A stretch of DNA of 64,000 bases from Rhodobacteraceae bacterium HLUCCA08 (GCA_001314655.1 LJSF01000014.1:1-64000), one strand, 5' to 3'; shown: positions 2,238 through 57,181, numbered from the stretch's first letter. Notes: generated by a model not told the origin, from the sequence alone. Made by a program: numbers and translations.

Positions 2238-2388
2238 CAGGCGGTCCCGGCCAGGGCTGCGATGGTGCGGCACAAGGTCCGCCGGTCAGTCCTGCGGCCG
2301 CGTCACGAAGGCGCGCGCCAGCAACGCGGCGGCCAGGTGCCGCCCCGGGAACCCGGCCCCGCCGGCCACCAGAACCGCGGATCCAGGC

Positions 2389-3399
2389 TCACTCATCGGC
2401 ATGGGCCTCGATGATTCGGGCGCCTTCGGTCCATTCCCGCTCCAGCGTCATCTGCGCGGCGACGGCACGCCCGGCGGCGGCGATCCCGGCGGCGCGGGCG
2501 GGGTTGCTGCGCGCCCAGTCGTAGCGCTCCGCCAGGTCGGACATGTCGGCCCGGACCGGCACGTAATGCTCCCACGGGTGCAGGCGATCGTACTACCATT
2601 GGCGAAAGCCGCGCTCGCTTTGCACCTTGAACACGCAGCAGCCCAGCTTGAGCCGATTTGCGAAGTTGTTCCACGCATTGCTGTGCCCGTCGATATCCAG
2701 CGCATAGCGGCGATTGGCCCAGCTCATCTCGTCCACCCGCTCGGCCGCAAGGCCGCGGGCCTCGAAAAAGGACCCATAGCGGGCCAGCGGATGGGCACGG
2801 CCGAAGATCAGCCTGGCGTCGATCCCGGAGGCCCGGGCGATCATCACCAGACGCATCCGGGCCATCACATGGGGATCGTCGATGCGGTCGGTATCCCAGG
2901 ATACATCCCCCGGCCCGTTGGCCGACCCGCGCCAGACCAGGGTGTCTTCGCGATCCGCCCAGGCCGGGGCGTCGTGCCAGGCGCGATCCGCCTGCGCGTA
3001 GGCACGATGCCGGAAAAAGAACGGGTCCGGCACCAGCACGATCCCTGCCCGGTTCGACGAGGGCGAAAACCGGTAGGTGCCGGGCCGGTGGCCATCGGTC
3101 ATGGTAAAGACCGCGCGCCGGGCCGCCGTGGCCCGGGCGAATTGCAGGATATGGGGCACCACGTGCGGATCCCCGTCACGGGCGACAAGGTCGCGCGCGG
3201 TATGGCGGGTGACGGTCAGGGAAATCGTCCCGCCTTCGCGGCGCAGCAGGGCAGCCCGCGGGGCCAGCACATCGGGCGCTTCGATCCGGACCCGAAAGGG
3301 ATCGTGCCAGGCCCAGTCGCGCGCCAGTTCGGCCCGCAGCATTGCGGCAAGCACGTCGCGCAGGCGAGGCTGATCCTCGGACGCGCGACCCTGGGTCAT
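2389..3399 (-). pseudogene. Glycosyltransferase family 90 (CAP10/LPS-modifying-like) gene interrupted by an in-frame TAG
   Basis: The 268-aa ORF ends ...KLGCCVFKVQSERGFRQW at TAG (2593-2595). The same frame then continues ...YDRLHPWEHYVPVRADMSDLAERYDWARSNP... to TGA at 2389-2391. The motif [FW]..W.H[YR].LL.PW.HYVPV that spans the stop is the GT90 signature. Confidence 0.6.
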
Positions 3400-3428: not shown

Positions 3429-4526
3429 TCAGGTGTTGAACAGGAAGTGCAGCACGTCGCCGTCGCGGACGACATAGCCCTTGCCCTCGGCGCGCATCTT
3501 GCCGGCCTCTTTCGCGGGCTGTTCGCCGCCCAGGGCGATGAAATCGTCATAGGCGATGGTTTCGGCGCGGATGAAGCCCTTTTCGAAATCGCCATGGATC
3601 ACCCCGGCGGCCTTCGGCGCCGTGGTGCCGACCTTGATGGTCCAGGCGCGGGCCTCCTTGGGGCCGACGGTGAAATAGGTCTCCAGGTGCAGCAACCCGT
3701 AGGCGGCCTTGATCAGACGATCCAGGCCCGCCTCTTCCAGCCCCATCTCGTCCAGGAACATCGCGGCCTCGTCGGGCTCCAGCTGGGCGATCTCCTCTTC
3801 GATCCGGGCCGAGATGATGACGTGGGAATTGCCCTGGGCAGCGGCCATCTCGGCCACCGCCTGCGCATGGGCGTTGCCGGTCGCGGCCTCGTCCTCGGCT
3901 ACGTTGCAGACATAGAGCACCGGCTTGGTGGTCAGCAGTTGCAGCATCTTCCAGGCCTTGGAATCCTCGTCCTCCACCGGCACCGTCCGCGCCGGCCTGC
4001 CGTCTTCCAGGGCCTCTTGCGCGGCCTTCAGCAGCCGCTCCTGCTGGACCGCCTCCTTGTCGCCGCCGCGGACCTTGCGGACGATGTTCTGCAGGCGCTT
4101 CTCGATGCTTTCCAGGTCGGCCAGCATCAGCTCGGTCTCGATCGTGTCGGCATCGGCGACCGGATCGACCCGGCCCTCGACATGGGTTATATCCCCGTCC
4201 TCGAAGCAGCGCAGCACATGGGCGATGGCGTCGACCTCGCGGATATTGGCCAGGAACTGGTTGCCCAGCCCCTCGCCCTTGCTGGCGCCCTTCACCAGGC
4301 CGGCGATGTCGACGAAGGTCATCCGCGCCGGGATGATCTGGGCCGATTTCGCGATCTCGGCCAGCCGGTCCAGCCGCGCATCGGGCACGTTGACCTCGCC
4401 CACATTGGGCTCGATCGTGCAGAACGGAAAATTCGCCGCCTGCGCCGCGGCGGTCTTGGTCAGCGCGTTGAAGAGCGTGGACTTGCCCACGTTCGGCAAG
4501 CCGACGATGCCCATGCGAAAGCCCAT
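3429..4526 (-). CDS. ychF: Ribosome-binding ATPase YchF (Obg-family GTPase)
   Basis: MGFRMGIVGLPNVGKSTLFNALT... shows the G1-G4 motifs and a TGS C-terminus. The start is taken at MGFRMG, which is the conserved YchF N-terminus. The ORF track extends 21 aa further upstream. Confidence 0.9.
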   Translation of the reverse strand: MGFRMGIVGLPNVGKSTLFNALTKTAAAQAANFPFCTIEPNVGEVNVPDARLDRLAEIAKSAQIIPARMTFVDIAGLVKGASKGEGLGNQFLANIREVDAIAHVLRCFEDGDITHVEGRVDPVADADTIETELMLADLESIEKRLQNIVRKVRGGDKEAVQQERLLKAAQEALEDGRPARTVPVEDEDSKAWKMLQLLTTKPVLYVCNVAEDEAATGNAHAQAVAEMAAAQGNSHVIISARIEEEIAQLEPDEAAMFLDEMGLEEAGLDRLIKAAYGLLHLETYFTVGPKEARAWTIKVGTTAPKAAGVIHGDFEKGFIRAETIAYDDFIALGGEQPAKEAGKMRAEGKGYVVRDGDVLHFLFNT

Positions 4527-4663
4527 TTTCGTGCTCCTGTCTGCCAGTCGCGGGCTGTCTAGGCCCGGACGCGGCGCGGCACAAGCCACAGCACCGCCCC
4601 TGACCCATTGATTTCCCGCGCCCCCTGCGCCAAACCGGGCCGGTCACTGCCAGGGAAACGCAC

Positions 4664-5524: not shown

Positions 5525-6694
5525 ATGCCCGTGATCACCTGCATCGACGACCTCAAGCGCCTGCACAGGCGGCGCACGCCGAAGATGTTCTACGATTACG
5601 CGGAATCCGGCAGCTGGACCGAACAGACCTTTCGGGACAATACCACCGATTTCGCGCAGATCCGCCTGCGCCAGCGCGTGGCGGTCGACATGTCGAACCG
5701 CACCACCGCCTCGACCATGGCCGGCCACAAGGTGGCGATGCCCGTCGCGCTTGCCCCGGTCGGGCTGACCGGCATGCAGCGCGCCGACGGAGAGATCAAG
5801 GCCGCGAAGGCGGCCGAGAAATTCGGCGTGCCCTTCACCCTGTCCACCATGTCGATCTGTTCGATCGAGGATGTGCGCGAACACACGAAGGAACCGTTCT
5901 GGTTCCAGCTTTACGTGATGCGCGACGAGGATTTCGTCGACAACATCATCGCCAGGGCCAGGAACGCCGGTTGTTCGGCGCTGGTGCTGACGCTGGATCT
6001 GCAGATCCTCGGCCAGCGCCACAAGGACCTCAAGAACGGGTTGTCGGCGCCGCCCCGGCTGACCCTGCCGGTGATGGCCGACCTGGCGACCAAGTGGCGC
6101 TGGGGGCTGGAGATGCTGCGCACCCCGCGCCGGACCTTCCGCAACATCGTCGGCCACGCCAAGGGCGTGAACCAGATGGGCTCGCTCATGTCCTGGACCA
6201 ACGAACAATTCGACCCCCGGCTGGACTGGGACAAGATCGCCCGGCTGAAGGAAAAATGGGGCGGCACCCTGATCCTGAAGGGCGTGCTGGACGTGGAGGA
6301 TGCCCGGCGCGCCGCCGATATCGGCGCCGATGCCATCGTCGTGTCGAACCACGGCGGGCGGCAACTGGACGGGGCGCTGTCGGCGATCCGCGTGTTGCCC
6401 TCGATCGTGCGCGCCGTGGGCGAGCGGGTCGAGGTCCATTTCGACAGCGGCATCCGCTCGGGCCAGGATGTGCTCAAGGCGCTCGCGCTGGGGGCCAGGG
6501 GCACCTATATCGGCCGCGCCTATATCCACGGGCTCGGCGCGATGGGCGAGGCCGGCGTGACCCGCGCGCTCGAGGTGATCCACAAGGAACTCGACGTGTC
6601 GATGGCGCTGTGCGGCCGGCGCGACGTGCAGGATCTGGGTCGCGACGTCCTGCTGGTGCCCGAGGATTTCGAAGGCCGCTGGGCCCCGGCCTGA
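5525..6694 (+). CDS. lldD: FMN-dependent alpha-hydroxy-acid dehydrogenase (L-lactate dehydrogenase/LldD-like)
   Basis: MPVITCIDDLKRLHRRRTPKMFYDYAESGSWTEQTFRDN ... SNHGGRQLDGA shows the glycolate oxidase/LldD family signatures. The start at ATG 5525 is preceded by GAAGGA. Confidence 0.8.
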   Translation: MPVITCIDDLKRLHRRRTPKMFYDYAESGSWTEQTFRDNTTDFAQIRLRQRVAVDMSNRTTASTMAGHKVAMPVALAPVGLTGMQRADGEIKAAKAAEKFGVPFTLSTMSICSIEDVREHTKEPFWFQLYVMRDEDFVDNIIARARNAGCSALVLTLDLQILGQRHKDLKNGLSAPPRLTLPVMADLATKWRWGLEMLRTPRRTFRNIVGHAKGVNQMGSLMSWTNEQFDPRLDWDKIARLKEKWGGTLILKGVLDVEDARRAADIGADAIVVSNHGGRQLDGALSAIRVLPSIVRAVGERVEVHFDSGIRSGQDVLKALALGARGTYIGRAYIHGLGAMGEAGVTRALEVIHKELDVSMALCGRRDVQDLGRDVLLVPEDFEGRWAPA

Positions 6695-6706
6695 CAGGAT
6701 CCGCGC

Positions 6707-7864
6707 CTAGCCCACCGCCCGCCCGGCCGGGTGCCGGGCCCGGATCGCCAGGGCCAGCGGCGCCGCGATCAGCAGCACGCAGGCGACCCCGGCGAAGGCC
6801 GCCCGCAGGCCGAAGGCCTCGCTGGCGAAGCCCATTCCGACCGGCGCCAGGAAAAACCCCGAAAAGCCCATCACCGCGACCTTGCTGATCGCGTCGGTGC
6901 GGCGATGCGGCGGCACCATCCGCCCGACCAGCGCCAGGCCCAGCGGCCCGATCACCGACACGCCCAGGCCAAGGATGCCGAATCCCAGATAGGCCCAGAC
7001 CGGGGCCGGAGCCGCCGCCGCGATCACCGCGCCGCAGGCCGACAGCATCGAGGCCCAGACGATCACCGTCACCGCGCCGGCCCGATGCGACAAGGCCTGC
7101 CCCGAAAACCGCCCCAGCGCCATGGTCAGGCCCAGCGTCGCCGGCCCCAGCGCGCCCTCGGCCGCGCCGCCCTGCAGCGTGCGCTCGATATGCAGGGCCG
7201 ACCAGGCCTCGACCGTGGCCTCGGACATGAAGGCGACCAGCACCACGCCGCCGCACAGCAGAACCGCCTCGAACGGGAACCGCCCCGGCCCGTCCTGACC
7301 CGGCGCCACCACCGCTTCGGGGTCCAGCCGCAGCCGGGTCGCCAGCAGCAGCGCCAGCACCGTGTATCCGGCGAACATCTGCACCGGCACCGCCCCGGCC
7401 TCGCGCGCCAGCCCGGTCAGGATCGCGCCGATCGCATAGCCCAGCGAAAACAGACCGTGATTGGCATTCATCAGGCTGCGACCGTGGCGCGCCTCGGCCT
7501 CGCTCACCCGCGTGTTCATCAGCACGTCCAGCAGCCCCGATGCCAGGCCCAGCGCCACCATCGCGGCAAAGAAGGCCACCGGGCCGCTTGCCAGGCCCGG
7601 CCCCAGCACCGCCAGCGCCAGCAGGACCGTGGCGACCTGCATGCCGGCGCCGCCCAGCGCCCGGTCAAGCCGCGGCGCCAGCCACATCGAGGTAACCAGC
7701 CCGAAGGCCGATCCCAGCAGAACCGTGCCGAATTGCGCATCGCCCACACCCAGCCCGGCCTTCAGCACCGGCACCTGCGCGGCGAAGGTGCCCCAGAACA
7801 GGCCCAGGGTCAGAAAGGCAAGCGCCGGGCGCGGCGTCGCGGCAAGGGCGGAACGGACGGACAT
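6707..7864 (-). CDS. MFS transporter
   Basis: There are 12 predicted TM segments and an MFS-like G-rich loop. The start is taken at MSVRSALAAT. The ORF track's 5' extension overlaps the intergenic region. Confidence 0.7.
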   Translation of the reverse strand: MSVRSALAATPRPALAFLTLGLFWGTFAAQVPVLKAGLGVGDAQFGTVLLGSAFGLVTSMWLAPRLDRALGGAGMQVATVLLALAVLGPGLASGPVAFFAAMVALGLASGLLDVLMNTRVSEAEARHGRSLMNANHGLFSLGYAIGAILTGLAREAGAVPVQMFAGYTVLALLLATRLRLDPEAVVAPGQDGPGRFPFEAVLLCGGVVLVAFMSEATVEAWSALHIERTLQGGAAEGALGPATLGLTMALGRFSGQALSHRAGAVTVIVWASMLSACGAVIAAAAPAPVWAYLGFGILGLGVSVIGPLGLALVGRMVPPHRRTDAISKVAVMGFSGFFLAPVGMGFASEAFGLRAAFAGVACVLLIAAPLALAIRARHPAGRAVG

Positions 7865-11763: not shown

Positions 11764-12144
11764 ATGGAAAAGGCCCCGTCGCGCAATGTCCTGGGTCAGC
11801 CGCTGGCGCCCTGTTCGCTGGACCCGCTCACCGGGTTCTTCCGCAACGGTGCCTGCGACACCTGCGCCGAAGATCGCGGATCGCACACCGTCTGCGCGGT
11901 GATGAGTGCCGAATTCCTGGCCTTTTCGAAATATGTCGGCAATGACCTGAGCACCCCGCGGCCCGAATTCGGCTTTGCCGGGCTGAAACCGGGCGATCGC
12001 TGGTGCCTGTGCGCCAGCCGTTTTCTGCAGGCCCATGATGATGGCTGCGCCCCGCGCATCGCCCTGGCCGCGACCCATGAACGGGCGCTGGACATCGTCC
12101 CGCTGGAGGTTCTGCGCATCTATGCCGAAGACACCTCGGGCTGA
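11764..12144 (+). CDS. DUF2237-family small Cys-rich protein
   Basis: 126 aa with conserved Cys pairs (CSLDPLTGFFRNGACDTC..., WCLCASRF). Confidence 0.55.
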   Translation: MEKAPSRNVLGQPLAPCSLDPLTGFFRNGACDTCAEDRGSHTVCAVMSAEFLAFSKYVGNDLSTPRPEFGFAGLKPGDRWCLCASRFLQAHDDGCAPRIALAATHERALDIVPLEVLRIYAEDTSG

Positions 12145-12644
12145 TCGGTGCGCCCGCGCGCGCTGACCGCACCGTCCATCAGGTCCTCGATGAAGACCGA
12201 CAGCAATTGCGGCCGGCCGCTGACCCCGGCCTTGCGGTAGATCGCATTGGTCTGTGCCTTGACCGTGCCTTCCGACGTGTCCCGCAGGCCGGCGATTTCC
12301 GCCGTCGTCATGCCCTTGATGGCGAACAGCGCCACGTCGCGTTCGGCCGGGGTCAGGCCCCATTCGGCGAAGCGTTCCTCCATGATCTCCAGGAAGGCGC
12401 CCGAGGCGGCGCGCAGCTGGCTTTCGACATGCGCCGTATGCCGGGTCATGCTGCGGAACAGGACGATGCTGACGGCCACGCCCAGGACCAGCCCTAGCGC
12501 GGCGCCGATCTCGATCACCTCGTGGAACTGCCAGTTGATCGGCGCCAGACCGAACACGCTGACCAGCAGGTTCCACAGGAAAAAACCCGCGCAGGTCACC
12601 TGCACGAGCACCAGGGCAACGAAGAGTCCGCGCCGCGATGTCAT
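12120..12644 (-). CDS. Membrane-anchored LuxR-family transcriptional regulator (two N-terminal TM helices plus a C-terminal LuxR HTH)
   Basis: The N-terminus has two hydrophobic helices. The C-terminal TPAERDVALFAIKGMTTAEIAGLRDTSEGTVKAQTNAIYRKAGV is a LuxR/GerE HTH. Confidence 0.75.
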   Translation of the reverse strand: MTSRRGLFVALVLVQVTCAGFFLWNLLVSVFGLAPINWQFHEVIEIGAALGLVLGVAVSIVLFRSMTRHTAHVESQLRAASGAFLEIMEERFAEWGLTPAERDVALFAIKGMTTAEIAGLRDTSEGTVKAQTNAIYRKAGVSGRPQLLSVFIEDLMDGAVSARGRTDQPEVSSA

Positions 12645-12656
12645 CCAGCCGGCGCG

Positions 12657-13172
12657 TCAATCGTCATCATCATCCTTGTCGTCCTCGTCATCATCCTCGT
12701 CGTCGGCGTCATCATCTTCGTCGTCTTCATCTTCATCGTCGTCGTCGTCGTCGTCATCGTCTTCATCGTCGTCGTCATCGTCGTCATCGTCTTCATCGTC
12801 GTCGTCATCGTCGTCTTCGTCGTCGTCTTCATCGTCGTCGTCGTCTTCATCGTCATCATCCGCACCCGCGTCATCCGCGTCCCCGGGGTCGACCAGGCGC
12901 GGGGTGGGCCTGTCATCGTCGTCGCGGCGATTGCCGCCGATCTCGGTCCAGTAATCGCGCAGGATCACGCCGGTTTCTGGCACCACGACGATCTCGCGAC
13001 GCAGTTCATCCGACCAGGCGACAAAACGGATCCGCCCCAGAAGCGTGCGGCTGACCTCGACGCGGGTGAACCCCTGGTCGTTCAATTGCCGAACGATCTG
13101 CTGCTCAAGGGTCTGGGCCGCGGCCGCCATCGGCGCGAACGCCAGGGACGCGGCCAGCAGAAGCGGTTTCAC
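12657..13172 (-). CDS. Secreted PepSY-like domain protein with a ~100-residue poly-Asp/Glu C-terminal tail (paralog 1)
   Basis: I take the start as GTG (13170-13172), giving (M)KPLLLAASLAFAPMAAAAQT, a signal peptide. The PepSY-like core is QGFTRVEVSRTLLGRIRFVAWSDELRREIVVVPETGVIL. The tail from about residue 125 to the C-terminus is almost exclusively D/E. The ATG at 13331 in the ORF track would overlap the upstream gene by 85 bp and lacks a signal peptide. The start is uncertain. Confidence 0.6.
   Translation of the reverse strand: MKPLLLAASLAFAPMAAAAQTLEQQIVRQLNDQGFTRVEVSRTLLGRIRFVAWSDELRREIVVVPETGVILRDYWTEIGGNRRDDDDRPTPRLVDPGDADDAGADDDDEDDDDDEDDDEDDDDDDDEDDDDDDDDDEDDDDDDDDDEDEDDEDDDADDEDDDEDDKDDDDD
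12660..12890. repeat. GTC/ATC/TTC trinucleotide microsatellite-like tract encoding the poly-D/E tail
   Basis: Long runs such as gtcgtcgtcatcgtcttcatcgtcgtcgtc, with internal 9-18 bp tandem duplications, are seen directly. Confidence 0.8.
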
Positions 13173-13246
13173 GATCGCGGGTTTCAAGCCTTGTCTCTTC
13201 CTTGTTCGGGCCGCGGGCGCGGGCCGCCGCGGCCCGCATTCCGGGT

Positions 13247-13873
13247 CTATTTGCGCGCCTTCGCCGGTTTGAAGGTCGCGTTGAAGGCGATCGAGACCCG
13301 TTCCTCCTCGGCCTCGTTGGGATAGACCCAATGCACCAGATAGGATGGGAACAGGATGAGGTCACCGGGCTGTGGACGCAACTTCTTCTTCATCCGGAAC
13401 GGCGGGGCCTTGAGGATGCGCCAGTTCGGCAGGTCGCTGCGCGGGTCGACGAATTCGATCATCCCCGAATTGCCCGGCGCGACCGCGGGCTGGGCGACGT
13501 AATAGACACCCGACCAATGCGCCCCGGGATGGGTATGGGGCGCGTTGAAGCCCCCCTTGGGGTTGGCGTTCATCCAGGCGAAAAGCTTGAGGTCCAGCGC
13601 CGCGCGCGGGGTGGTCGCGCCGATCCGGTCATTGGCCGCGAACACGGCCTCGGTCGCCAGGTCGCGCAGGCGGCGCAGGCAGGCGGGCTTGCCGTCGAAA
13701 AGGTTCCCCTCGGAATGCCAGCCGCCGCGGTTCGACTTGTGCGTGCCATCGGACAGGGCGCGCATCCGGGCGCCCTCCTCCAGAAGGGCGGCATTCAGCG
13801 CCGCATGATCCGGCGCCCGGAACCGCAGCACGGGGGTCGAGAACAGTTTTTCGTATCTGGTGGCTTCAAGCAT
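13247..13873 (-). CDS. Putative 2OG-Fe(II) oxygenase (TIGR02466-like family)
   Basis: About 208 aa. It has a HxD...H-type facial triad context (HTHPGAHWSGVYYV ... LFPSYLVHWVYPN) and an N-terminal ...LFSTPVL... The start is at ATG 13871-13873. Confidence 0.6.
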   Translation of the reverse strand: MLEATRYEKLFSTPVLRFRAPDHAALNAALLEEGARMRALSDGTHKSNRGGWHSEGNLFDGKPACLRRLRDLATEAVFAANDRIGATTPRAALDLKLFAWMNANPKGGFNAPHTHPGAHWSGVYYVAQPAVAPGNSGMIEFVDPRSDLPNWRILKAPPFRMKKKLRPQPGDLILFPSYLVHWVYPNEAEEERVSIAFNATFKPAKARK

Positions 13874-13989
13874 CCGCGCCTCACATCTGGCCGATCCGGG
13901 TGTCATCGGGAAACGCCCCCGGTCCCGTTCGTGACGGAAACCGGGGGCGCGGTCATGCCTGCATGGCAGGCAGGGGTCGATGGTTCGGG

Positions 13990-14511
13990 TCAGTCGTCGT
14001 CTTCCTCGTCATCATCTTCCTCGTCATCATCTTCCCCGTCATCATCTTCCTCGTCGTCGTCTTCGTCGTCGTCGTCTTCCTCGTCGTCTTCGTCGTCTTC
14101 GTCGTCTTCGTCGTCGTCGTCTTCCTCGTCATCGCGCGCGTCATCATCGCGCTCTTCGTCGTCTTCCTCGTCGTCTTCCTCGTCGTCTTCCTCGTCGTCG
14201 CTCTCGTCACCGTCGACAAAATCCTCGTCATCGGTATCGAATTCGACCCCGGGGCGGGTGTCGTCACCGGCGCGCACACGCTCGATTTCCTGGCTGAGGA
14301 TCGCGCCGGTGGCGGCATCGTAGATCACTTCGACCTTGGTATTGCCGCGGGTCGCCTCGACCTTGATCTGGGACGGGCCGGTATCGATCTCGACGCGGGT
14401 ATAGCCTTCGTCGAGATACCCCTGCGCGAGGCGTTCGGCCAGGCTCTGGGCCAGGGCCGGGCTGGCGCCGAGGGCGAGGATGGCGGTGGTGGTCATCAGG
14501 GTGTTGCGCAT
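13990..14511 (-). CDS. Secreted PepSY domain protein with a ~100-residue poly-Asp/Glu C-terminal tail (paralog 2)
   Basis: The start at ATG 14509-14511 has an AAAGGA RBS. It has the signal peptide MRNTLMTTTAILALGASPALAQS and the PepSY core EGYTRVEIDTGPSQIKVEATRGNTKVEVIYDAATGAILSQE. The tail is ~110 residues of D/E. Confidence 0.75.
   Translation of the reverse strand: MRNTLMTTTAILALGASPALAQSLAERLAQGYLDEGYTRVEIDTGPSQIKVEATRGNTKVEVIYDAATGAILSQEIERVRAGDDTRPGVEFDTDDEDFVDGDESDDEEDDEEDDEEDDEERDDDARDDEEDDDDEDDEDDEDDEEDDDDEDDDEEDDDGEDDDEEDDDEEDDD
13993..14250. repeat. Tandem 12- and 15-bp repeats (gtcatcatcttcctc x3; ctcgtcgtcttc x3) within a GTC/TTC-rich tract encoding the poly-D/E tail
   Basis: Direct tandem units are seen at 14020-14065 and about 14160-14200. 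Confidence 0.8.
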
Positions 14512-14732
14512 TGGGTCGTCCTTTCGGTCAGGAATGTCTCTTGTGTGAGCGTGGTCGAGGCAGCACCCCTCGGGTCCCTGCCTTGCCACCACCAGACCCG
14601 GTTCGACCTGCGCATCCCATTGACCCACGGGTAGAAACGGCGCGCCCTAAACCCCGCGACTAAGGCCATAAACTTCGGTTTAGGACCGATGCGGGGCTTT
14701 CGCGCCGATCGGTTTCGGCTCATGATCGGCCC

Positions 14733-15323
14733 ATGTCGATCAGGATCGCATTGTTGGTTCTGCTGCTTCTGCCGGGGCTTGCCGCGGCACAGCAGATCCG
14801 ACCGGCCGACCGGGAGCGGCTGACCGAAACCGATGCCCTGCTGGGCCGGGCGCTGAAACAGGCGCTGGCCTATGGGGCCGCCGCCGACATCGCCTTGCTG
14901 ACCCGGGCGATGCAAGGTGCGCCGGGCGATTTCGACCCCGCGGGTGACTGGAATTGCCGCACGCTCAAGCTGGGCGGGATCCTGCCGCTGGTCGCCTATC
15001 CGGATTTCTCGTGCCGGATCGAGCCGCTCGAAACCGGCGGCTGGCGGCTGGTCAAGCTGACCGGGTCGCAGCGGGTCGTCGGCACGATCCACGCCACCGG
15101 CCCGTCGGCCCTGTTCCTGGGCGTCGGCCATGTCGGCACCGCCCCGGCGACCGATTACGCCGGCCTGCCACCGGACGACCAGACCCCGGTCGAGCCGAAT
15201 CAGACCACGGCCGATGTCGGCTGGTTCGAACAGATGGGCCCGGACCGCGCCCGCCTGTTGCTACCCGATCCGGTGCTGGAGAGCGATTTCGACATCCTCT
15301 ACCTGACCCGTCAGGCAGGATAG
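14733..15323 (+). CDS. Secreted hypothetical protein (DUF4893-like)
   Basis: The signal peptide is MSIRIALLVLLLLPGLAAAQ and there are two Cys residues. The family assignment is from memory and uncertain. Confidence 0.5.
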   Translation: MSIRIALLVLLLLPGLAAAQQIRPADRERLTETDALLGRALKQALAYGAAADIALLTRAMQGAPGDFDPAGDWNCRTLKLGGILPLVAYPDFSCRIEPLETGGWRLVKLTGSQRVVGTIHATGPSALFLGVGHVGTAPATDYAGLPPDDQTPVEPNQTTADVGWFEQMGPDRARLLLPDPVLESDFDILYLTRQAG

Positions 15324-15437: not shown

Positions 15438-18362
15438 ATGGCACTGATCCAAGGCGGCACCGGCAATGACAGCCTTGAAGGCACCAATGGCGCGGATCTC
15501 ATTTATGGTTATGGCGGCAATGACGACCTCTTTGGCAGCCCGGGCGGCGACCTCATGGATGGCGGCGCAGGCGATCTGGACACCGCCGACTATTCCGGCA
15601 GTCTGAACGGCGTCACCGTCAACCTCGACACCGGCGTGGGCGATGGCGGCCTGGCCACCGGGGACACGCTCGTGGGGATCGAGATCGTCATCGGCTCGGA
15701 TGCCGGCGACACCCTGATCGGCGACGACAAGGACAACAACCTGTGGGGTCGCGACGGCGACGACACGCTGATCGGCGGGCTCGGCGACGACAACCTGCAG
15801 GGCGAAGGCGGCTTCGACACCGTCGATTACTCCGACAGCGATGCCGCCGTCGAAATCTTCCATATCGACGCGGGCGGCGGCGGTCCCTCGGGCGGCCATG
15901 CCGAGGGCGATTTCCTCAAGGGCATCGAAAAGATCATCGGCTCCGATTTCGACGACACGATCTATGCGCCCTTCTCCGTCACCTGGTCCGAGGCCCATGG
16001 CGGCGATGGCAATGACGCCCTGCACGGGGTCACGCAGGATGTCTCGCTCTATGGCGGCAGCGGCGACGATTACCTGCGCGTCGCTTTCCCAGATGACAGC
16101 TATGTCTATGGCGGCCTCGACCGCGACGAAGTCGATTTCGACGGCGTCTTCGGCGTCACCGCCAATCTGGGCACCGGCATGGTCAACGGCAACGAGCGGC
16201 TGTTCCTGATCGAGGACGCGACCGGAACAGGCAGCACCGACATCCTGATCGGCACCAGCCTGGCCAATACGCTGGACGGCAGCGGCGGCGACGACACGCT
16301 CGAAGGGATGGGCGGCGCCGACCACCTGATCGGCGGCGCCGGTATCGACACCGCGCGCTATACCAGCTCGACCGGGGGCGTGATCGTCGACCTGGAGACC
16401 GGGACCGGCGACGATTTCCATGCCAACGGCGATATCCTGGAAGAGATCGAGAACATCCGCGGCTCCAACCATGGCGACACGCTTCTGGGCGACGCCAACG
16501 ACAACACCTTCTGGGGCCAGAACGGCGACGACACCTTTGACGGGCGCACCGGCGACGACACCTATTTCGGCGGCGCCGGCAACGACCTGGTCAGCTTCGC
16601 CAGCAGCGCCACGGGCCGCAGCGCGTCCCTGGCGACCGATACCGGCGGCACTTTCGACAGCATCGAATCCCTGCAGGGCTCGGACCGGAACGACACGCTG
16701 ACCGGCAATTCAATGGCCAACACGATCACCGGCGGCCTGGGCGACGACACGCTTGCCGGGCTGCAGGGCGCCGACCGGCTGGGCGGCGGCGGCGGCAGCG
16801 ACACCGCCGATTACCGCGCCTCGACCGCCAGCGTCAGCATCGACCTGGTGAACGGCACCGGCACCGGTGGCCATGCCGAAGGCGATGAGCTGCAAAGGAT
16901 CGAGAACGTCCAGGGCTCGGATTATTTCGACGTCCTGATCGGCGACGCCGAGGTCAACCGCCTCTACGGCAATGGCGACAACGACCTGCTGATCGGCGGC
17001 GCAGGGGCCGATTTCCTTTATGGCGGCGACGGGGACGACACGGCGATCTATACCGAGTCAGGTTCCGGCGTGACCGTCGACCTGCAGACCATCGGTGCCA
17101 ATCCCTATATCGGCGCCGGCACCGGCGGCGATGCCGAGGGCGACGTGCTGGACGGGATCGAGAATGTCGACGGCTCCAGGCACGACGATGTCCTGACCGG
17201 CTCCAACGCCGACAACACCCTGTTCGGCGACGATGGCGATGACACTTTCTTTGTCACCGGCGGCCAGGATGTGCTGGGCGGCGGCGACGGCGAGGATACG
17301 GTCGACTTCCAGGTTGCCCCGACCGCGGTCGGCACCACGGTCGATCTCGAGGTCGGCTATTACACGCTGGGGGCCATCGGCCCCAGCCTCGTGAACGATA
17401 TCGAAAACGTCGTCGGCACCGATCATGACGACACGCTCCTGGGCAACGCCTTCGACAACACGCTCGAAGGCGGCGCCGGGGATGACACGATCAGCGGCGG
17501 GCTGGGGCTTGATGTCGCCTCCTATGCCGGCGCCACGGGCGGCGTGTCGGTCTACCTGATGTGGACCGGGCTCGACGTGGGCGGCGGCGCGGGCATCGAC
17601 ACCCTGTCGGGGATCGAGAACCTTCTGGGTTCCGACCACGACGACCGCCTGGCCGGCGATACCGGCGACAACACCCTGCGCGGCCGCGACGGCGACGACA
17701 TCCTCAACGGCAAGGGTGGCAACGACGTGATCCGCGGCGGCGGCGGCCATGACAAGATCACCGCAGCCGACGGCAATGACAGCCTTTATGGCGGCACCGG
17801 CGACGACACGATCTTCGGCCTCGGCGGCGATGACCTGATCGACGGCGGCGCCGACAATGACTGGCTTTACGGCGGCCGTGACGCCGACCTGATCCTGGGC
17901 GGCGACGGCGATGACCAGATCCGCGGCAATATCGGCCATGACGACCTGCAGGGCGGCCTCGGCGACGACGATCTGCGCGGCGGCGCCGGCGACGATACGC
18001 TGTCGGGCGGCGCCGATGACGATTTCCTGGTCGGCGAGAACGGCGAGGACACGCTGGAAGGCGGCTCTGGCGACGACGTGATGATCGGCGGTTTCGATTC
18101 CGTGACCCCGGACGGGCTGCGCGACGTCTTCGTCTACAAGATGCACGGCGGCAACAGCGGCTATGACCGCATCCGCGGCTGGGAGGACGGCATCGACCAG
18201 ATCGACCTGACCGATTTCCAGTTCAATTCCTTCACCATCGACGTGTTCAACCGTGCAACCGACATCGCATCCGGTCTGCGGATCGATTTCGGGCTCGGCA
18301 ACGTGCTGCTGATCGAAGATTTCACCAAGGCCGATTTCGACGCGGGGGACGTGATGATCTGA
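15438..18362 (+). CDS. RTX-family calcium-binding repeat protein (hemolysin-type GGxGxDx[LI]x nonapeptide repeats) with a T1SS-type C-terminal domain
   Basis: 974 aa with dozens of GGxGxD repeats. The C-terminus (DVFVYKMHGGNSGYDRIRGWEDGIDQIDLTDF...LRIDFGLGNVLLIEDFTKADFDAGDVMI) matches the D.FvF...G.D.I.DF..G.D.IDL pattern of type I secretion C-terminal target domains. Confidence 0.85.
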   Translation: MALIQGGTGNDSLEGTNGADLIYGYGGNDDLFGSPGGDLMDGGAGDLDTADYSGSLNGVTVNLDTGVGDGGLATGDTLVGIEIVIGSDAGDTLIGDDKDNNLWGRDGDDTLIGGLGDDNLQGEGGFDTVDYSDSDAAVEIFHIDAGGGGPSGGHAEGDFLKGIEKIIGSDFDDTIYAPFSVTWSEAHGGDGNDALHGVTQDVSLYGGSGDDYLRVAFPDDSYVYGGLDRDEVDFDGVFGVTANLGTGMVNGNERLFLIEDATGTGSTDILIGTSLANTLDGSGGDDTLEGMGGADHLIGGAGIDTARYTSSTGGVIVDLETGTGDDFHANGDILEEIENIRGSNHGDTLLGDANDNTFWGQNGDDTFDGRTGDDTYFGGAGNDLVSFASSATGRSASLATDTGGTFDSIESLQGSDRNDTLTGNSMANTITGGLGDDTLAGLQGADRLGGGGGSDTADYRASTASVSIDLVNGTGTGGHAEGDELQRIENVQGSDYFDVLIGDAEVNRLYGNGDNDLLIGGAGADFLYGGDGDDTAIYTESGSGVTVDLQTIGANPYIGAGTGGDAEGDVLDGIENVDGSRHDDVLTGSNADNTLFGDDGDDTFFVTGGQDVLGGGDGEDTVDFQVAPTAVGTTVDLEVGYYTLGAIGPSLVNDIENVVGTDHDDTLLGNAFDNTLEGGAGDDTISGGLGLDVASYAGATGGVSVYLMWTGLDVGGGAGIDTLSGIENLLGSDHDDRLAGDTGDNTLRGRDGDDILNGKGGNDVIRGGGGHDKITAADGNDSLYGGTGDDTIFGLGGDDLIDGGADNDWLYGGRDADLILGGDGDDQIRGNIGHDDLQGGLGDDDLRGGAGDDTLSGGADDDFLVGENGEDTLEGGSGDDVMIGGFDSVTPDGLRDVFVYKMHGGNSGYDRIRGWEDGIDQIDLTDFQFNSFTIDVFNRATDIASGLRIDFGLGNVLLIEDFTKADFDAGDVMI

Positions 18363-18398
18363 CCCGCGACTCCACGCTCCTCACAACGGAGACTTTCA

Positions 18399-20024
18399 AT
18401 GACCACTTACATCTACAATGCCTTTGAAGCCCTCAAGCATCCGGTTCTGCAAGACACCTATACCCACATCCAGTACCGTGATTTCCAGATCGTCGCGCCC
18501 GAGGACGAAACCGGGTTCACCCTGCTGGACCCTTCGGGCGGCGCCCTGCCCGAGCCGCCCCTCGACGTCGATTCCGAGCTCTATGACCTGCGTTTCGGCG
18601 AGTCCGGGATCTTTGTCGATGTCGACCCGGACCAGGACCTGGTGCGCAGCGTCCGCCTGGACTGGACGCAAGGCGTGGCCGTGAACCAGACCGATCTGCT
18701 GATCTTCGAGGATGACCAGCGCCTGCTGGTGATCGAACTTGGCGGCGACCCCCTGCCCGCCTTCGCCAGCGGCGCCGAATTCACCGGTTTCGTCGGCGGC
18801 GTCATCAGCGCCGACGGCACCGCCGGCGCCCCCTTCGACCCGGGCAGCTTCATTCCCTTCACCTCGCTCACCTCCCTGTTATCCACGACCGAAAACGACG
18901 CCATCTTCGGCACCCCGGCCGGCGACACGTTCTTCGGCGGGCTGGGCAATGACACGATCACGGGCGAGACTGGCAACGATACCCTTTTCGGCGGCGACGG
19001 TGCGGATCGTATCCTCGGCGATGACGGCGACGACACGATCTATGGCGGCGAGGGCTACGATGTTCTCTACGGCGGCGCGGGCGACGATGTCTTCTTCGGC
19101 GGGACCGGCTACAACCAGATGTATGGCGGCGCCGGGAACGACACCTATTTCGGCGGCGATGTGACCGGCGACCAGGTGAGTTTCATCGAGGCCAGCTCCG
19201 GCATTTCGCTTTACCTTGAATTCCCGGATCTCGACCTGGGCGGCGGAATGGGGGTCGACACGTTCTTTTCCATCGACCGCTTTGTCGGCTCGCCCCACGA
19301 TGACCGCATGGTGGGCGATGACAGCTTCAATCGCCTGTTCGGCGGGTCCGGCAACGACATCATCCGGGCGAATGGCGGCACCGGCAATTTCCTCAACGGC
19401 GGCAGCGGTGACGACGATATCCGCGGCTCGGACGGCGACGATACGGTCTACGGCATGCAGGGCCAAGACATCATCGCGACGCTCGACGGCGCCGACGTGA
19501 TCTACGGCGGTGACGAAGCCGACTGGATCTCGTCCGGGCGCGGCAACGACATCGTCCATGGCGACGACGGCGACGACACGATCCGCACCAATCGCGGCAA
19601 CGACACTGCCTATGGCGGCAGCGGCGCCGACGATATCCGCGGCGGCGGCGGCAACGACCTGATCCTTGGCGGCGGCGACGACGATTACCTGGTCGGCGAA
19701 AACGGCGCCGACACGCTGGACGGCGGGGCCGGCGACGACGTGTTGATCGGGGGCTTCGATGCCACCACGCCCGACGGGCTGACCGATACCTTCGTCTACC
19801 GCACCGGCGCGGATGGCGGCGGCTATGACCGCATCCGCGGCTGGGAGGACGGCATCGACGTGATCGACCTGACGGCGTTCGGCTTCACCGATTTCGACAC
19901 CCAGGTCGATCCCCTCGCGACCGACGTCGCGGCGGGCCTCAGGATCGATTTCGGCGGCGGCGACGTGCTGCTGGTCGAGGATTTCACCAGGGCGGATTTC
20001 GACGCCGGCGACGTGCTGATCTGA
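18399..20024 (+). CDS. RTX-family calcium-binding repeat protein (paralog 2) with the same C-terminal domain
   Basis: 541 aa with GGxGxD repeats. The C-terminal ~90 aa align with those of paralogs 1 and 3 (DTFVYRTGADGGGYDRIRGWEDGIDVIDLTAF...GLRIDFGGGDVLLVEDFTRADFDAGDVLI). Confidence 0.85.
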   Translation: MTTYIYNAFEALKHPVLQDTYTHIQYRDFQIVAPEDETGFTLLDPSGGALPEPPLDVDSELYDLRFGESGIFVDVDPDQDLVRSVRLDWTQGVAVNQTDLLIFEDDQRLLVIELGGDPLPAFASGAEFTGFVGGVISADGTAGAPFDPGSFIPFTSLTSLLSTTENDAIFGTPAGDTFFGGLGNDTITGETGNDTLFGGDGADRILGDDGDDTIYGGEGYDVLYGGAGDDVFFGGTGYNQMYGGAGNDTYFGGDVTGDQVSFIEASSGISLYLEFPDLDLGGGMGVDTFFSIDRFVGSPHDDRMVGDDSFNRLFGGSGNDIIRANGGTGNFLNGGSGDDDIRGSDGDDTVYGMQGQDIIATLDGADVIYGGDEADWISSGRGNDIVHGDDGDDTIRTNRGNDTAYGGSGADDIRGGGGNDLILGGGDDDYLVGENGADTLDGGAGDDVLIGGFDATTPDGLTDTFVYRTGADGGGYDRIRGWEDGIDVIDLTAFGFTDFDTQVDPLATDVAAGLRIDFGGGDVLLVEDFTRADFDAGDVLI

Positions 20025-20262
20025 TCGCGCGCCGCGCCCGGCTGGGTTCGACCCGCCGTGGCTGTCGTCCTGTCGCGGCGGTCCTTTTCAAGATCCGCAG
20101 CGATCGGGGCAGCAGCAGCAAGGCGCTGCTGTTCCCCGACCGCGTGGCCAAGGCGCAACGTGACGCGACGCGACCCGATTTGTGGCGCCCGGGCGCACCG
20201 AAACGCCATAGAATCGCCGTTAACCATGATTAACACGCCGTTAACCAAGGAGGCGTGTTTCC

Positions 20263-21945
20263 GTGTTCACCTATCGTTTCGACGGCTATACTTGGGTCGG
20301 GTCGCTGGCCAGTTTCAATACCGTTCTGAACCGGGTCAATTACAGTTTCGACAGCGATGCTGTGACCTATGACCTGACCGATGCGGGCCAGGCGATCCAG
20401 GGCGAACAACTGGTCGATACCGACCTGCCGACGATCACCGCGGATGAGGTCGGGTCGGCCAACAGCTACACTGTCGACCTGGTCACCGCAGGAAACGTGG
20501 AGACCCAGATCCAGGAAGTCTCCTGGACCTATTTCGGCGAAAGCTACACGACCTGGATCCTGTTCAGCCAGGACATGGTGACCGGCCGCGCCTTCCTGAT
20601 GGAGATCGGCGGGGACGAATTCCCCACCTTCACCCAGCGCGCCGACCTGCAGAGCCTGTTCAACACCGCGACCTTCAGCGACCCCAGCCCCGGATCGGGG
20701 TTCGAGCCGGGCGATACCGTCCCGATCGCCGAGATCGCCGAGGTGACGGCCACCGATACCGACGGCAGCGTCACCGACACCCCCTGGGGCGACTGGATCT
20801 ATGCCAGCGACGGCGCCGACATGATCACCGCCGCCAGCGGGACCGAGGCGGATACGCTCCATGCGCTGGATGGCGATGACACGATCACCCTGGGCACGGC
20901 CGGCGGCCTGATCCATGCCGGCGCGGGCGACGACACCGCCACCACCGCCGCGCAATCGGCAATCACCTTCTACGGCGAGGACGGCACCGACCACCTGACC
21001 AGCACCGGCACCGGCCGGGTCTATTTCCTGGGCGGGGCGGGCGACGACACCTTCATCGGCAATGGCGCCGACGACTGGGTCAGTTTCGCCGACCCGAACA
21101 GCTACGGCATCACGCTCTATCTGAAATGGACCGGGATGTTCGACCTGGGCAGCGGCCAGGGCACCGATACCTATGTCGGGATCGAGGGTGTTCTGGGCTC
21201 GGATGGCGACGACCGGATCATCGCCGACAAGGACTCGACCATCGGCATCACCGTGCATACCGGCTTCGGGAATGATGTCGTGAAGGGCACCGAGGGCAAC
21301 GACGTGATCGATGGGCGCGACAGCGACAGCCTCGTGGCTCATGGACGCGGAGGCGATGACATCATCATCGGCAGCGATTTCGGAGATGACACGCTGTTCG
21401 GGTATCACGGCGACGATACGATCGACGGTCTGGATGGCTTCGACTACCTCTATGGCGGCGCCGGCAACGACCTGCTGCGCGGCGGCGAGGGCGACGACAA
21501 CCTGCGCGGCAATCGTGGCAACGACACGCTCTTCGGTGGCGCAGGCCGCGACGACCTGCGCGGCGGTGCCGGCGATGATCTGCTCGAAGGTGGCAGCGAC
21601 AACGATTACCTGTTCGGCGAAAACGGCGAAGACACCCTGCATGGCGGCACCGGCAACGACGTGATGACCGGCGGCTTCGGTGCCGGGGTGCTGGACGGGC
21701 GGACGGATGTCTTTGTCTTCGCCTCGGCCGCCCAGGGCAGCGGCGGTGCCGACCGGATCAAGGATTTCGAGGACGGGATCGACAGCCTGGATCTGACCGC
21801 CTTCGGCTTCGCCAGCTTCTCGCAGATCAGCGCCCTGGCCAGCGATACCGCCTCGGGCATGCGGATCGATTTCGGGGATGGCGACACGCTGCTGCTCGAA
21901 GGGTTCCTGAAGGCCGATTTCGATGCGACCGACGTGTCATTCTGA
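20263..21945 (+). CDS. RTX-family calcium-binding repeat protein (paralog 3); likely GTG start
   Basis: 560 aa. The N-terminal 170 aa are non-repeat, followed by GGxGxD repeats and the conserved C-terminal domain (DVFVFASAAQGSGGADRIKDFEDGIDSLDLTAF...GMRIDFGDGDTLLLEGFLKADFDATDVSF). AAGGAGG lies 10 nt upstream of GTG 20263. Confidence 0.8.
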   Translation: MFTYRFDGYTWVGSLASFNTVLNRVNYSFDSDAVTYDLTDAGQAIQGEQLVDTDLPTITADEVGSANSYTVDLVTAGNVETQIQEVSWTYFGESYTTWILFSQDMVTGRAFLMEIGGDEFPTFTQRADLQSLFNTATFSDPSPGSGFEPGDTVPIAEIAEVTATDTDGSVTDTPWGDWIYASDGADMITAASGTEADTLHALDGDDTITLGTAGGLIHAGAGDDTATTAAQSAITFYGEDGTDHLTSTGTGRVYFLGGAGDDTFIGNGADDWVSFADPNSYGITLYLKWTGMFDLGSGQGTDTYVGIEGVLGSDGDDRIIADKDSTIGITVHTGFGNDVVKGTEGNDVIDGRDSDSLVAHGRGGDDIIIGSDFGDDTLFGYHGDDTIDGLDGFDYLYGGAGNDLLRGGEGDDNLRGNRGNDTLFGGAGRDDLRGGAGDDLLEGGSDNDYLFGENGEDTLHGGTGNDVMTGGFGAGVLDGRTDVFVFASAAQGSGGADRIKDFEDGIDSLDLTAFGFASFSQISALASDTASGMRIDFGDGDTLLLEGFLKADFDATDVSF

Positions 21946-23583: not shown

Positions 23584-23658
23584 CGTTGTGATGGCTGGAG
23601 TCGAACCAGCTCCACCTCGATTAGACGTCGAGTGCTCTACCAGATGAGCTACATCCTT
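23584..23658 (-). tRNA. Degenerate tRNA-like sequence (pseudo-tRNA; TCT-like anticodon region)
   Basis: The reverse complement shows a good D-arm (GCTCATCTGGTAGAGC) and T-arm (GCTGG-TTCGACT-CCAGC). The anticodon loop is CGTCTAA with G in place of U33, and the acceptor stem closes with only 4 of 7 bp. It is either non-functional or non-canonical. Confidence 0.4.
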
Positions 23659-33528: not shown

Positions 33529-33606
33529 GGGGAGTGCTCCATTGGGGGTTTCCGCGCCTCGCCAGGAAGCCGTTGAGGCGGGTTGTTCCGGGTTCCGGCA
33601 TTTCGC

Positions 33607-57104: not shown

Positions 57105-57181
57105 TGGCGGCCCCTGAAGGATTCGAACCCTCGACCTGCCGATTAGAAGTCGGCTGCTCTATCCAGCTGAGCTAAGGGGCC
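57105..57181 (-). tRNA. tRNA-Arg (anticodon TCT)
   Basis: The reverse complement is GGCCCCTTAGCTCAGCTGGATAGAGCAGCCGACTTCTAATCGGCAGGTCGAGGGTTCGAATCCTTCAGGGGCCGCCA. This is a canonical cloverleaf with the loop CTTCTAA and an encoded CCA. Confidence 0.9.

Follow-up and report, generated by a model that had tools for sequence, protein, structure and literature searches.

What purpose is served by two exported bacterial proteins that end in long, almost uninterrupted runs of aspartate and glutamate, and how is an oxygenase encoded between them connected with these tails? The question is raised by a four-gene cluster of Rhodobacteraceae bacterium HLUCCA08, located in a 64,000-nucleotide stretch (GCA_001314655.1, LJSF01000014.1:1-64000) that was analyzed over its full length and is referred to below as the window. 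Four co-directional open reading frames (ORFs) occupy the minus strand between positions 14511 and 12120 in the order B, O, A, L. B and A are secreted, acid-tailed proteins with a PepSY-like domain, O belongs to a family of Fe(II)/2-oxoglutarate (2OG) oxygenases and L is a membrane-anchored regulator of the LuxR type. These are the genes and coordinates given in a preliminary description of the locus; all four were confirmed, and their lengths of 173, 208, 171/176 and 174 residues match independent JGI gene calls on 100%-identical contigs from the Hot Lake mat metagenome. Comparison with other genomes gives an answer in two parts. The PepSY-like proteins and L form a conserved unit of Rhodobacterales. 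O is an accessory member of this unit, yet it comes from a family that repeatedly adjoins genes for acid-tailed exported proteins.

Acid-tailed proteins A and B

Proteins A and B share one architecture. Each starts with a typical Sec signal visible in the sequence (K/R n-region, hydrophobic core, AxA-Q), as had been described, continues with a domain of about 70 residues and ends in the tail. The tail of A has 77 residues (59 D, 10 E, 8 others) and that of B has 84 (48 D, 26 E, 10 others). The preliminary description was right that the tails are nearly pure Asp/Glu (69/77 and 74/84 D+E, respectively), and the D/E string it gave as an example is found in A; its tail length of 100–110 residues is too high. 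Mature A has a net charge of about −69 and mature B one of about −76. Among the ORFs of the window, only these two have an acidic tract of at least 18 D/E per 40 residues. The two lengths of A (171 and 176 residues) were also considered as a tail-length polymorphism, which was rejected: the DNA is identical, and only the start codon assumed differs, GTG (13172) or TTG (13187).

A PepSY–LuxR unit conserved in Rhodobacterales

For the locus scan, a 36-sequence alignment proved too diverse and was cut to 8 sequences, from which one peptide pattern, G[PL][TSN]QIKVEA, was used. We fetched 80 loci with the PepSY-like domain, nearly all of them from Rhodobacterales; reliance on a single pattern biases them as a sample of the family. 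Of the 80 loci, 70 contain a homolog of L, which is encoded downstream of the PepSY genes in every unit that could be chained. Among the 84 regulator-anchored units, 60 have the order B-A-L and a further 16 have A-L, and the A-type gene adjoins L in 83. The minimal unit is A-L, and it includes copies with non-acidic tails. The gene-neighborhood comparison across Rhodobacterales, which had been put forward as a check on the locus, reveals a conserved core of PepSY and LuxR genes, the latter with two transmembrane (TM) segments. A DUF2237 homolog is found in 56 of the 80 loci, nearly always convergent and just downstream of L, which may reflect either synteny or a functional link.

Many genomes contain a second A-type PepSY and LuxR pair upstream of the first. 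It was located at 6643–7616 of locus L018 and is also present in L034, L041, L045, L051, L054, L056, L060, L065, L068 and L080. The PepSY protein of this second pair has a non-acidic tail rich in A, P, G and S, often with a hydrophobic L-P-x-P-like ending.

How good is the PepSY assignment itself? Protein B reaches 16.1–18.3 bits against PF03413 and PF13670, under their gathering cut-offs of 24 and 24.3, and A has no match to either hidden Markov model (HMM). Across the family, PF13670 is matched by 19 of 36 members at E≤0.01 (best E 1.2e-6) and PF03413 by 8 of 36, and one member is named 'PepSY domain-containing protein' by NCBI. The predicted topology, one helix followed by 4–5 strands, fits PepSY; in fold searches, PepSY proteins were matched only weakly. 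When the PDB sequences were searched with the domain profile, only noise was returned, mostly ribosomal uS3. Thus, the assignment made in the preliminary description holds only at the family level, where the sequence matches are consistent; for A and B taken singly it is weak.

The family is large. A word-indexed protein search with the B domain gave only 2 relatives, while an exhaustive profile search with the N-terminal domain retrieved 1877 cluster representatives (taken at 50% identity) at E≤1e-3. Most members have Asp-rich tails of 50–120 residues, usually diluted by G, S, N, H or R, and about half of them terminate in -DD. In these tails, composition is kept and sequence is not. Two unusual members deserve mention. 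P0020 is a giant protein of 3837 residues in which 26 separate stretches match the PepSY-like profile, so that it is apparently a repeat protein of this domain. In P0017 (129 residues), the PepSY domain is in-frame with the C-terminal end of a LuxR regulator (GVSGRPQLLSLFIEDLMDG); this fusion is probably an assembly collapse or a deletion across repetitive tail DNA.

The properties of the tails would also fit a simpler role, in which the acid-tailed proteins are bulk periplasmic polyanions serving as a cation buffer, in Donnan/osmotic balance or as an inhibitor of carbonate or phosphate nucleation, with no signaling involved and L controlling expression only. The tails are extreme, with a net charge of about −70 each, composition is conserved over sequence, the bacterium stems from mat consortia of hypersaline Hot Lake, and poly-Asp is a classic scale inhibitor. 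However, members were also found in Rhodobacterales of fresh water and activated sludge (such as Cypionkella, Fuscovulum and Rhodobacter), the well-conserved N-terminal domain is strictly paired with L, and some copies of the minimal A-L unit lack acidic tails. We consider the bulk-polyanion role possible, with the balance leaning against it.

Regulator L and its candidate operator

L passes the GerE (PF00196) cut-off with 30 versus 23.5 bits over residues 97–149. Its N-terminus consists of two hydrophobic, TM-like segments (~7–31 and ~40–64) joined by a short external loop with conserved W38 and E42, and its cytoplasmic helix-turn-helix (HTH) region is highly conserved among 100 homologs. Domain scans detected neither a receiver nor an autoinducer domain in L. 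The two-TM, LuxR-type one-component regulator of the preliminary description is borne out by these features. The database name of the protein (KPP89539.1), which makes it a two-component response regulator, was rejected, since a two-TM N-terminus takes the place of a CheY-like receiver.

A palindrome with the consensus GCaTAAAC-N4-GTTTAtGC recurs 140–185 bp upstream of the first PepSY gene in the family loci. In 51 of the 80 loci, it precedes a PepSY-family gene by no more than 400 bp; conversely, 53 of the 68 sites in 1.0 Mb of sequence have this position. The 64-kb window contains a single match even when one mismatch is allowed, with 0.05 expected by chance. A conserved palindrome upstream of the PepSY genes combined with an HTH regulator downstream is the signature of an autoregulated operon, and L would be the regulator that binds this candidate operator. 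A variant of the palindrome (TAAACGAAGGTTTA) lies 600–1100 bp upstream of the second A-type PepSY–LuxR pair.

The anchoring of L bears on another possible role of the PepSY domains. According to the Pfam description, which carries the original proposal for the domain, PepSY may act as a protease inhibitor; here it would control the proteolytic release of L, which is tethered by its TM hairpin and could be cleaved free. No protease gene is conserved in the module, and recent experimental work on PepSY proteins favors direct sensor binding and metal binding, which makes control by proteolysis quite unlikely.

Oxygenase O and its genomic company

O is found in only three of the 80 PepSY–LuxR loci, namely L007 (Octadecabacter), L044 (a metagenome-assembled genome from Great Salt Lake) and L048 (Salibaculum), and in all three it is placed between two PepSY genes. 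A different picture emerges from the side of O. Its homologs number 854 at E≤1e-10, and the top 120 are 66–100% identical to it. We examined 87 O-centered loci, 23 of which were too short to judge. An acid-tailed secreted partner adjoins O in 44 of the 64 informative loci, with relatives of O that are 56–100% identical. As background, 152 kb of flanking DNA beyond 2 kb from O yielded a single unique acidic ORF, itself a PepSY-family gene.

The partners are of two main types. PepSY-type partners occur in 26 loci and in three arrangements. They lie on the same strand in 23 of the 87 loci, where LuxR and DUF2237 genes are also seen if the flank suffices, and divergently in L122, L131 and L139, followed by a LuxR gene in the last two. 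Homologs of A and B and the oxygenase therefore do occur together, the opposite of what had been named as a refutation of the pairing. The second type, an EF-hand-type protein, is encoded directly upstream of O on the same strand in 18 loci, nearly always 28–116 bp away. Besides a signal peptide, it contains a pair of canonical EF-hand loops and ends in a long D/E/S tail; one such protein passes the Pfam cut-off of EF-hand_5. The palindrome was not found in the EF-hand-type loci. These EF-hand partners of O make a role of such tails in handling Ca2+ or other divalent cations more plausible; we infer from the chemistry of the tails and their independent fusion to EF-hand pairs that they are cation-binding elements.

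Some EF-hand-type loci have further features. In L106 and L163, the EF-hand-type gene lies upstream of O and a third kind of acidic secreted protein is encoded downstream (2185–3042 and 3803–4594, respectively). This protein has an N-terminal signal or TM segment followed by a D/E/G-rich region, and its C-terminus is a domain of ~130 residues with an internal repeat and no Pfam family. In L137 (4680–6715) and L159 (4681–6719), O is followed by convergent genes for a NarL/LuxR-type response regulator and a membrane histidine kinase, so that the acid-tail/O pair is again juxtaposed with a GerE-family regulator.

The partners share only the signal peptide and the acidic tail, suggesting that O tracks the tail and not the N-terminal domain. 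Gene neighborhood thus supports a functional tie between O and poly-acidic tails, and since the O family repeatedly adjoins genes for acid-tailed exported proteins, the tails are its likely substrate. The enzyme–substrate pairing proposed in the preliminary description is accordingly upheld as an association and not as a core part of the PepSY–LuxR module. Indeed, O is accessory and dispensable for the core function, because it is missing from 77 of the 80 PepSY–LuxR loci and pure poly-D tails occur without it. Tail purity was also tried as a marker of O and rejected: pure poly-D or D/E tails are found without O in L010, L014, L020, L029, L042, L074 and L079.

A single ancestral insertion of O is disfavored, as its presence varies within Octadecabacter (L007 versus L010) and within Thalassococcus (L089 versus L029). 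PepSY-type and EF-hand-type contexts are interleaved on a neighbor-joining tree of O, which is a tree without support values. Together with the patchy presence, this makes repeated gain, loss or partner exchange more likely.

Identity and fold of O

The assignment of O to a 2OG-Fe(II) oxygenase family in the preliminary description is confirmed by the curated cut-offs of both TIGR02466 (96.6 versus 62.5 bits) and PF13759, 2OG-FeII_Oxy_5 (82 versus 27 bits). The structural model is a double-stranded beta-helix with a predicted template modeling score (pTM) of 0.79; it has 89 PDB matches at E≤1e-3, and almost all of the top 50 listed are 2OG oxygenases. The best matches in both sequence and fold are 2rg4 (Oceanicola granulosus Q2CBJ1) and 3bvc (Roseovarius nubinhibens ISM_01780). 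Both are members of O's Pfam family and show its HxH...H...RxS pattern, but they are only 22–27% identical to O and are structural-genomics entries without assigned function. Next to these, the nearest characterized structures are PolD and two protein prolyl hydroxylases, P4H/EF-Tu of Pseudomonas putida and PHD2.

Residues H113-T-H115, H181 and R192-x-S/T194 (serine in O) are invariant, a pattern resembling that of 2OG oxygenases apart from its second His. The second metal-ligand position is therefore His instead of the Asp/Glu of the canonical HxD/E...H motif. O has a pI of 9.85, a conserved basic stretch RMKKKLRP and an invariant K/R patch. No match to the AspH family was found; at E≤1, Pfam lists only PF13759, Cupin_1, 2OG-FeII_Oxy_3 and Cupin_2.

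Proposed mechanism

The best explanation of the cluster as a whole is a cation module of PepSY domains and polycarboxylate tails coupled to a LuxR regulator, with O modifying the tails; we give it about an even chance of being correct. The module would be a conserved envelope unit of Rhodobacterales, in which two Sec-exported PepSY-like proteins work with the membrane regulator encoded directly downstream. The tails would bind multivalent cations in the periplasm with low affinity and high capacity. The PepSY domains, chiefly that of the regulator-proximal A-type protein, may dock on the TM hairpin or the short external loop of L, much as DbfQ acts on DbfS, and the cation load would thereby be coupled to transcription. 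In turn, L would regulate its own operon via the conserved palindrome. Some lineages, the present one among them, have the gene of cytoplasmic O inserted between the two PepSY genes. O would oxidatively modify tail residues before export; hydroxylation of Asp/Glu is the simplest such reaction and could tune metal affinity. This step is suggested by the gene neighborhood, fold and charge of O, and the tails are its most likely target because the O family recurs beside acid-tailed secreted proteins with unrelated N-terminal domains.

In its most specific form, the proposal is that a TIGR02466 subfamily acts as a hitherto unrecognized bacterial protein Asp/Glu hydroxylase, modifying the tails of Sec-exported PepSY- and EF-hand-type Ca2+/metal-binding proteins before export and, in Rhodobacterales, feeding a periplasmic cation signal to the membrane LuxR regulator. 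We regard this form as tentative and, on the whole, doubtful.

Several observations weigh against the mechanism. The scarcity of O among PepSY–LuxR loci and the pure tails found without it have been described above. Twenty O loci with adequate flank, about a third of the informative ones, have no acidic neighbor. The HxH...H metal motif in place of HxD/E...H makes 2OG-dependent hydroxylase chemistry uncertain. Since O lacks a signal peptide and its presumed substrates are exported, modification would have to precede Sec export. Finally, the palindrome of the window, ~50 bp from the ATG of the divergent DUF4893 gene, is nearer to that gene than to B.

Part of these observations would be accounted for if O were linked to acid-tailed proteins only through shared regulation or physiology (metal, oxygen or envelope stress) and acted on a small molecule or another protein. 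O is cytoplasmic while the tails are exported, about a third of the informative O loci lack an acidic neighbor, HxH is atypical for protein hydroxylases, and our literature search found no published function for TIGR02466/PF13759. Yet shared regulation does not readily explain the tight same-strand adjacency (28–116 bp) to partners that have only a signal peptide and an acidic tail in common, nor its recurrence over several arrangements and GC contents of 0.50–0.67, nor the basic character of O. We judge a mere regulatory link rather unlikely, though far from negligible.

Organization of the cluster and its surroundings

The features of the cluster and its immediate surroundings are collected in Table 1. 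Intergenic gaps shorten along the cluster, from 116 bp between B and O to 74 bp between O and A and 12 bp between A and L. The whole 122-nt intergenic segment of B and O folds with a minimum free energy of −54.9 kcal/mol (z −2.7), and its predicted hairpin is a possible leaky terminator or attenuator between the two genes. A sigma-70 promoter scan gave no match, a terminator scan gave chance-level hits only, an Rfam scan found no RNA element near the cluster, and megablast of the region against a plasmid collection returned no informative match. Elsewhere in the window, there are an SAM/SAH (S-adenosylmethionine/S-adenosylhomocysteine) riboswitch aptamer, RF01727, on the minus strand at 33535–33584 (52.4 bits versus a gathering score of 40) and tRNA genes at 226–312, 23590–23655 and 57108–57181.

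Table 1. Features of the acid-tail cluster and of the adjoining DNA; positions are counted from the first nucleotide of the window.
Feature	Position	Strand	Description
DUF2237 gene	11764..12144	+	Convergent with L; 25-bp overlap of the 3' ends (12120-12144)
L, membrane-anchored one-component regulator	12120..12644	-	174 aa; two-TM hairpin and GerE/LuxR HTH
A, acid-tailed PepSY protein	12657..13172	-	171 aa (176 aa if TTG at 13187 is the start)
Tail DNA of A	12660..12890	-	Codes for the 77-residue D/E tail; tandem repeat, period 3/30
O, TIGR02466/PF13759 protein	13247..13873	-	208 aa; cytoplasmic; Fe(II)/2OG-oxygenase fold
Hairpin after B	13913..13950	-	GC-rich, 16-bp, then UUUCC; just past the B stop codon
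B, acid-tailed PepSY protein	13990..14511	-	173 aa; Sec signal ~1-21, PepSY-like alpha+beta domain ~23-92, conserved DEDF linker, D/E tail
Tail DNA of B	13993..14244	-	Codes for the 84-residue D/E tail; tandem repeat, period 12/15
Palindrome, 20 bp, TCCTAAACCGAAGTTTATGG	14666..14685	n/a	~160 bp upstream of the B ATG; candidate operator of L
DUF4893 gene	14733-15323		Divergent from B; common intergenic region
Three RTX (HemolysinCabind) genes	15438-21945		First one 927 bp from B

The three RTX genes lie just beyond the cluster, as reported, and the preliminary description went further, taking the whole for a periplasmic calcium-handling unit co-regulated with the RTX proteins. The short distance between the two gene sets speaks for this model, and the EF-hand partners of O elsewhere hint at Ca2+. 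Nevertheless, up to a distance of 8 kb from the module, none of the 80 other genomes has an RTX homolog. The gene just before the module in relatives is PALP, and here a block of Band_7, RTX and DUF4893 genes separates the two; this block thus looks like a lineage-specific insertion in otherwise conserved synteny. A scan of the window found no operator-like palindrome near the RTX genes, the sole palindrome lying upstream of the PepSY operon. Thus, the RTX association as a conserved feature is largely refuted, and co-regulation with the RTX genes is highly unlikely.

Significance and relation to known systems

The association of O with acidic tails provides a concrete substrate hypothesis, cheap to test, for the widespread TIGR02466/PF13759 family, which is common in marine bacteria and cyanophages and is represented by two orphan crystal structures. 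If the hypothesis is true, the known post-translational modifications of exported bacterial proteins would be joined by a new one, an equivalent in bacteria of the hydroxy-Asp/Gla-type changes by which calcium binding of eukaryotic extracellular proteins is tuned. Independently of the oxygenase, a large and as yet unnamed family emerges from the analysis, consisting of acid-tailed PepSY proteins that go together with a one-component membrane regulator and with a conserved candidate operator. The findings also suggest that an ecologically dominant marine clade senses or buffers cations in the periplasm.

The tails have their closest analogs in calsequestrin and calreticulin, whose long C-terminal Asp/Glu runs give low-affinity, high-capacity Ca2+ binding. 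A and B are similar in that the run is C-terminal and belongs to a compartment-resident protein. They differ in having no sequence or domain relationship to these proteins: no calsequestrin-type (thioredoxin-like) domain turned up in either when Pfam was scanned at E≤1, and the acidic tail alone is in common. Their compartment is the bacterial periplasm, and Ca2+ binding is a prediction.

For the oxygenase, precedents exist in eukaryotic AspH, which acts on cbEGF domains, and in CinX/DurX, which act on lantibiotics; these Fe(II)/2OG enzymes hydroxylate Asp in Ca2+- or ligand-binding peptides. Theirs is the reaction proposed for O. O differs from them in belonging to TIGR02466/PF13759 and in having HxH in place of HxD/E, and its activity is predicted. 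The prolyl hydroxylases P4H of P. putida, acting on EF-Tu, and PHD2 are protein-modifying 2OG oxygenases with a flexible substrate loop, and the model of O resembles them with Foldseek E values of 5e-5 to 1e-4 and TM-scores of ~0.55–0.6. Identity to O is only 13–19%, however, and both the metal motif and the presumed substrate differ.

Modules of PepSY proteins with membrane sensors are already known. DbfQ, a small PepSY protein of the periplasm, binds to the sensor kinase DbfS and controls it directly, and neighborhoods of PepSY genes with two-component systems are widespread and more than 60-fold enriched, some of them with two PepSY genes upstream (PMC12714742). As in DbfQ-DbfRS of Vibrio cholerae and BqsPQRS (PA2659/PA2658) of Pseudomonas aeruginosa, a small Sec-exported PepSY protein is encoded here directly upstream of a membrane transducer; the known systems, too, sometimes have two PepSY paralogs, with the sensor-proximal one as the predicted binding partner. 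They use a histidine kinase and a response regulator, whereas the present module has a one-component, two-TM LuxR/GerE regulator, its PepSY proteins carry 50–120-residue Asp-rich tails, and contact between PepSY and L is a prediction. Metal binding by PepSY proteins is likewise established for UipA (uranium/iron) and lanpepsy (lanthanide) (PMC8857325, PMC9988556). These proteins bind the metal on folded PepSY domains; here, the obvious ligand field would be a disordered polycarboxylate tail. A literature search found no description of PepSY proteins with Asp-rich tails.

As had been claimed, the link between tails and oxygenase is undescribed within the literature searched; modules of PepSY and a membrane sensor, by contrast, are already on record (PMC12714742). 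Each component has precedents, be it PepSY-sensor modules, acidic Ca2+-buffering tails or protein-modifying 2OG oxygenases; what appears to be undescribed is their combination, especially the association of oxygenase and tail. By analogy with the DbfQRS and BqsPQRS systems, the core of the cluster looks like a PepSY-sensor module in a new form, with a one-component membrane LuxR regulator and polycarboxylate-tailed PepSY proteins, which would extend the PepSY-sensor principle past two-component systems.

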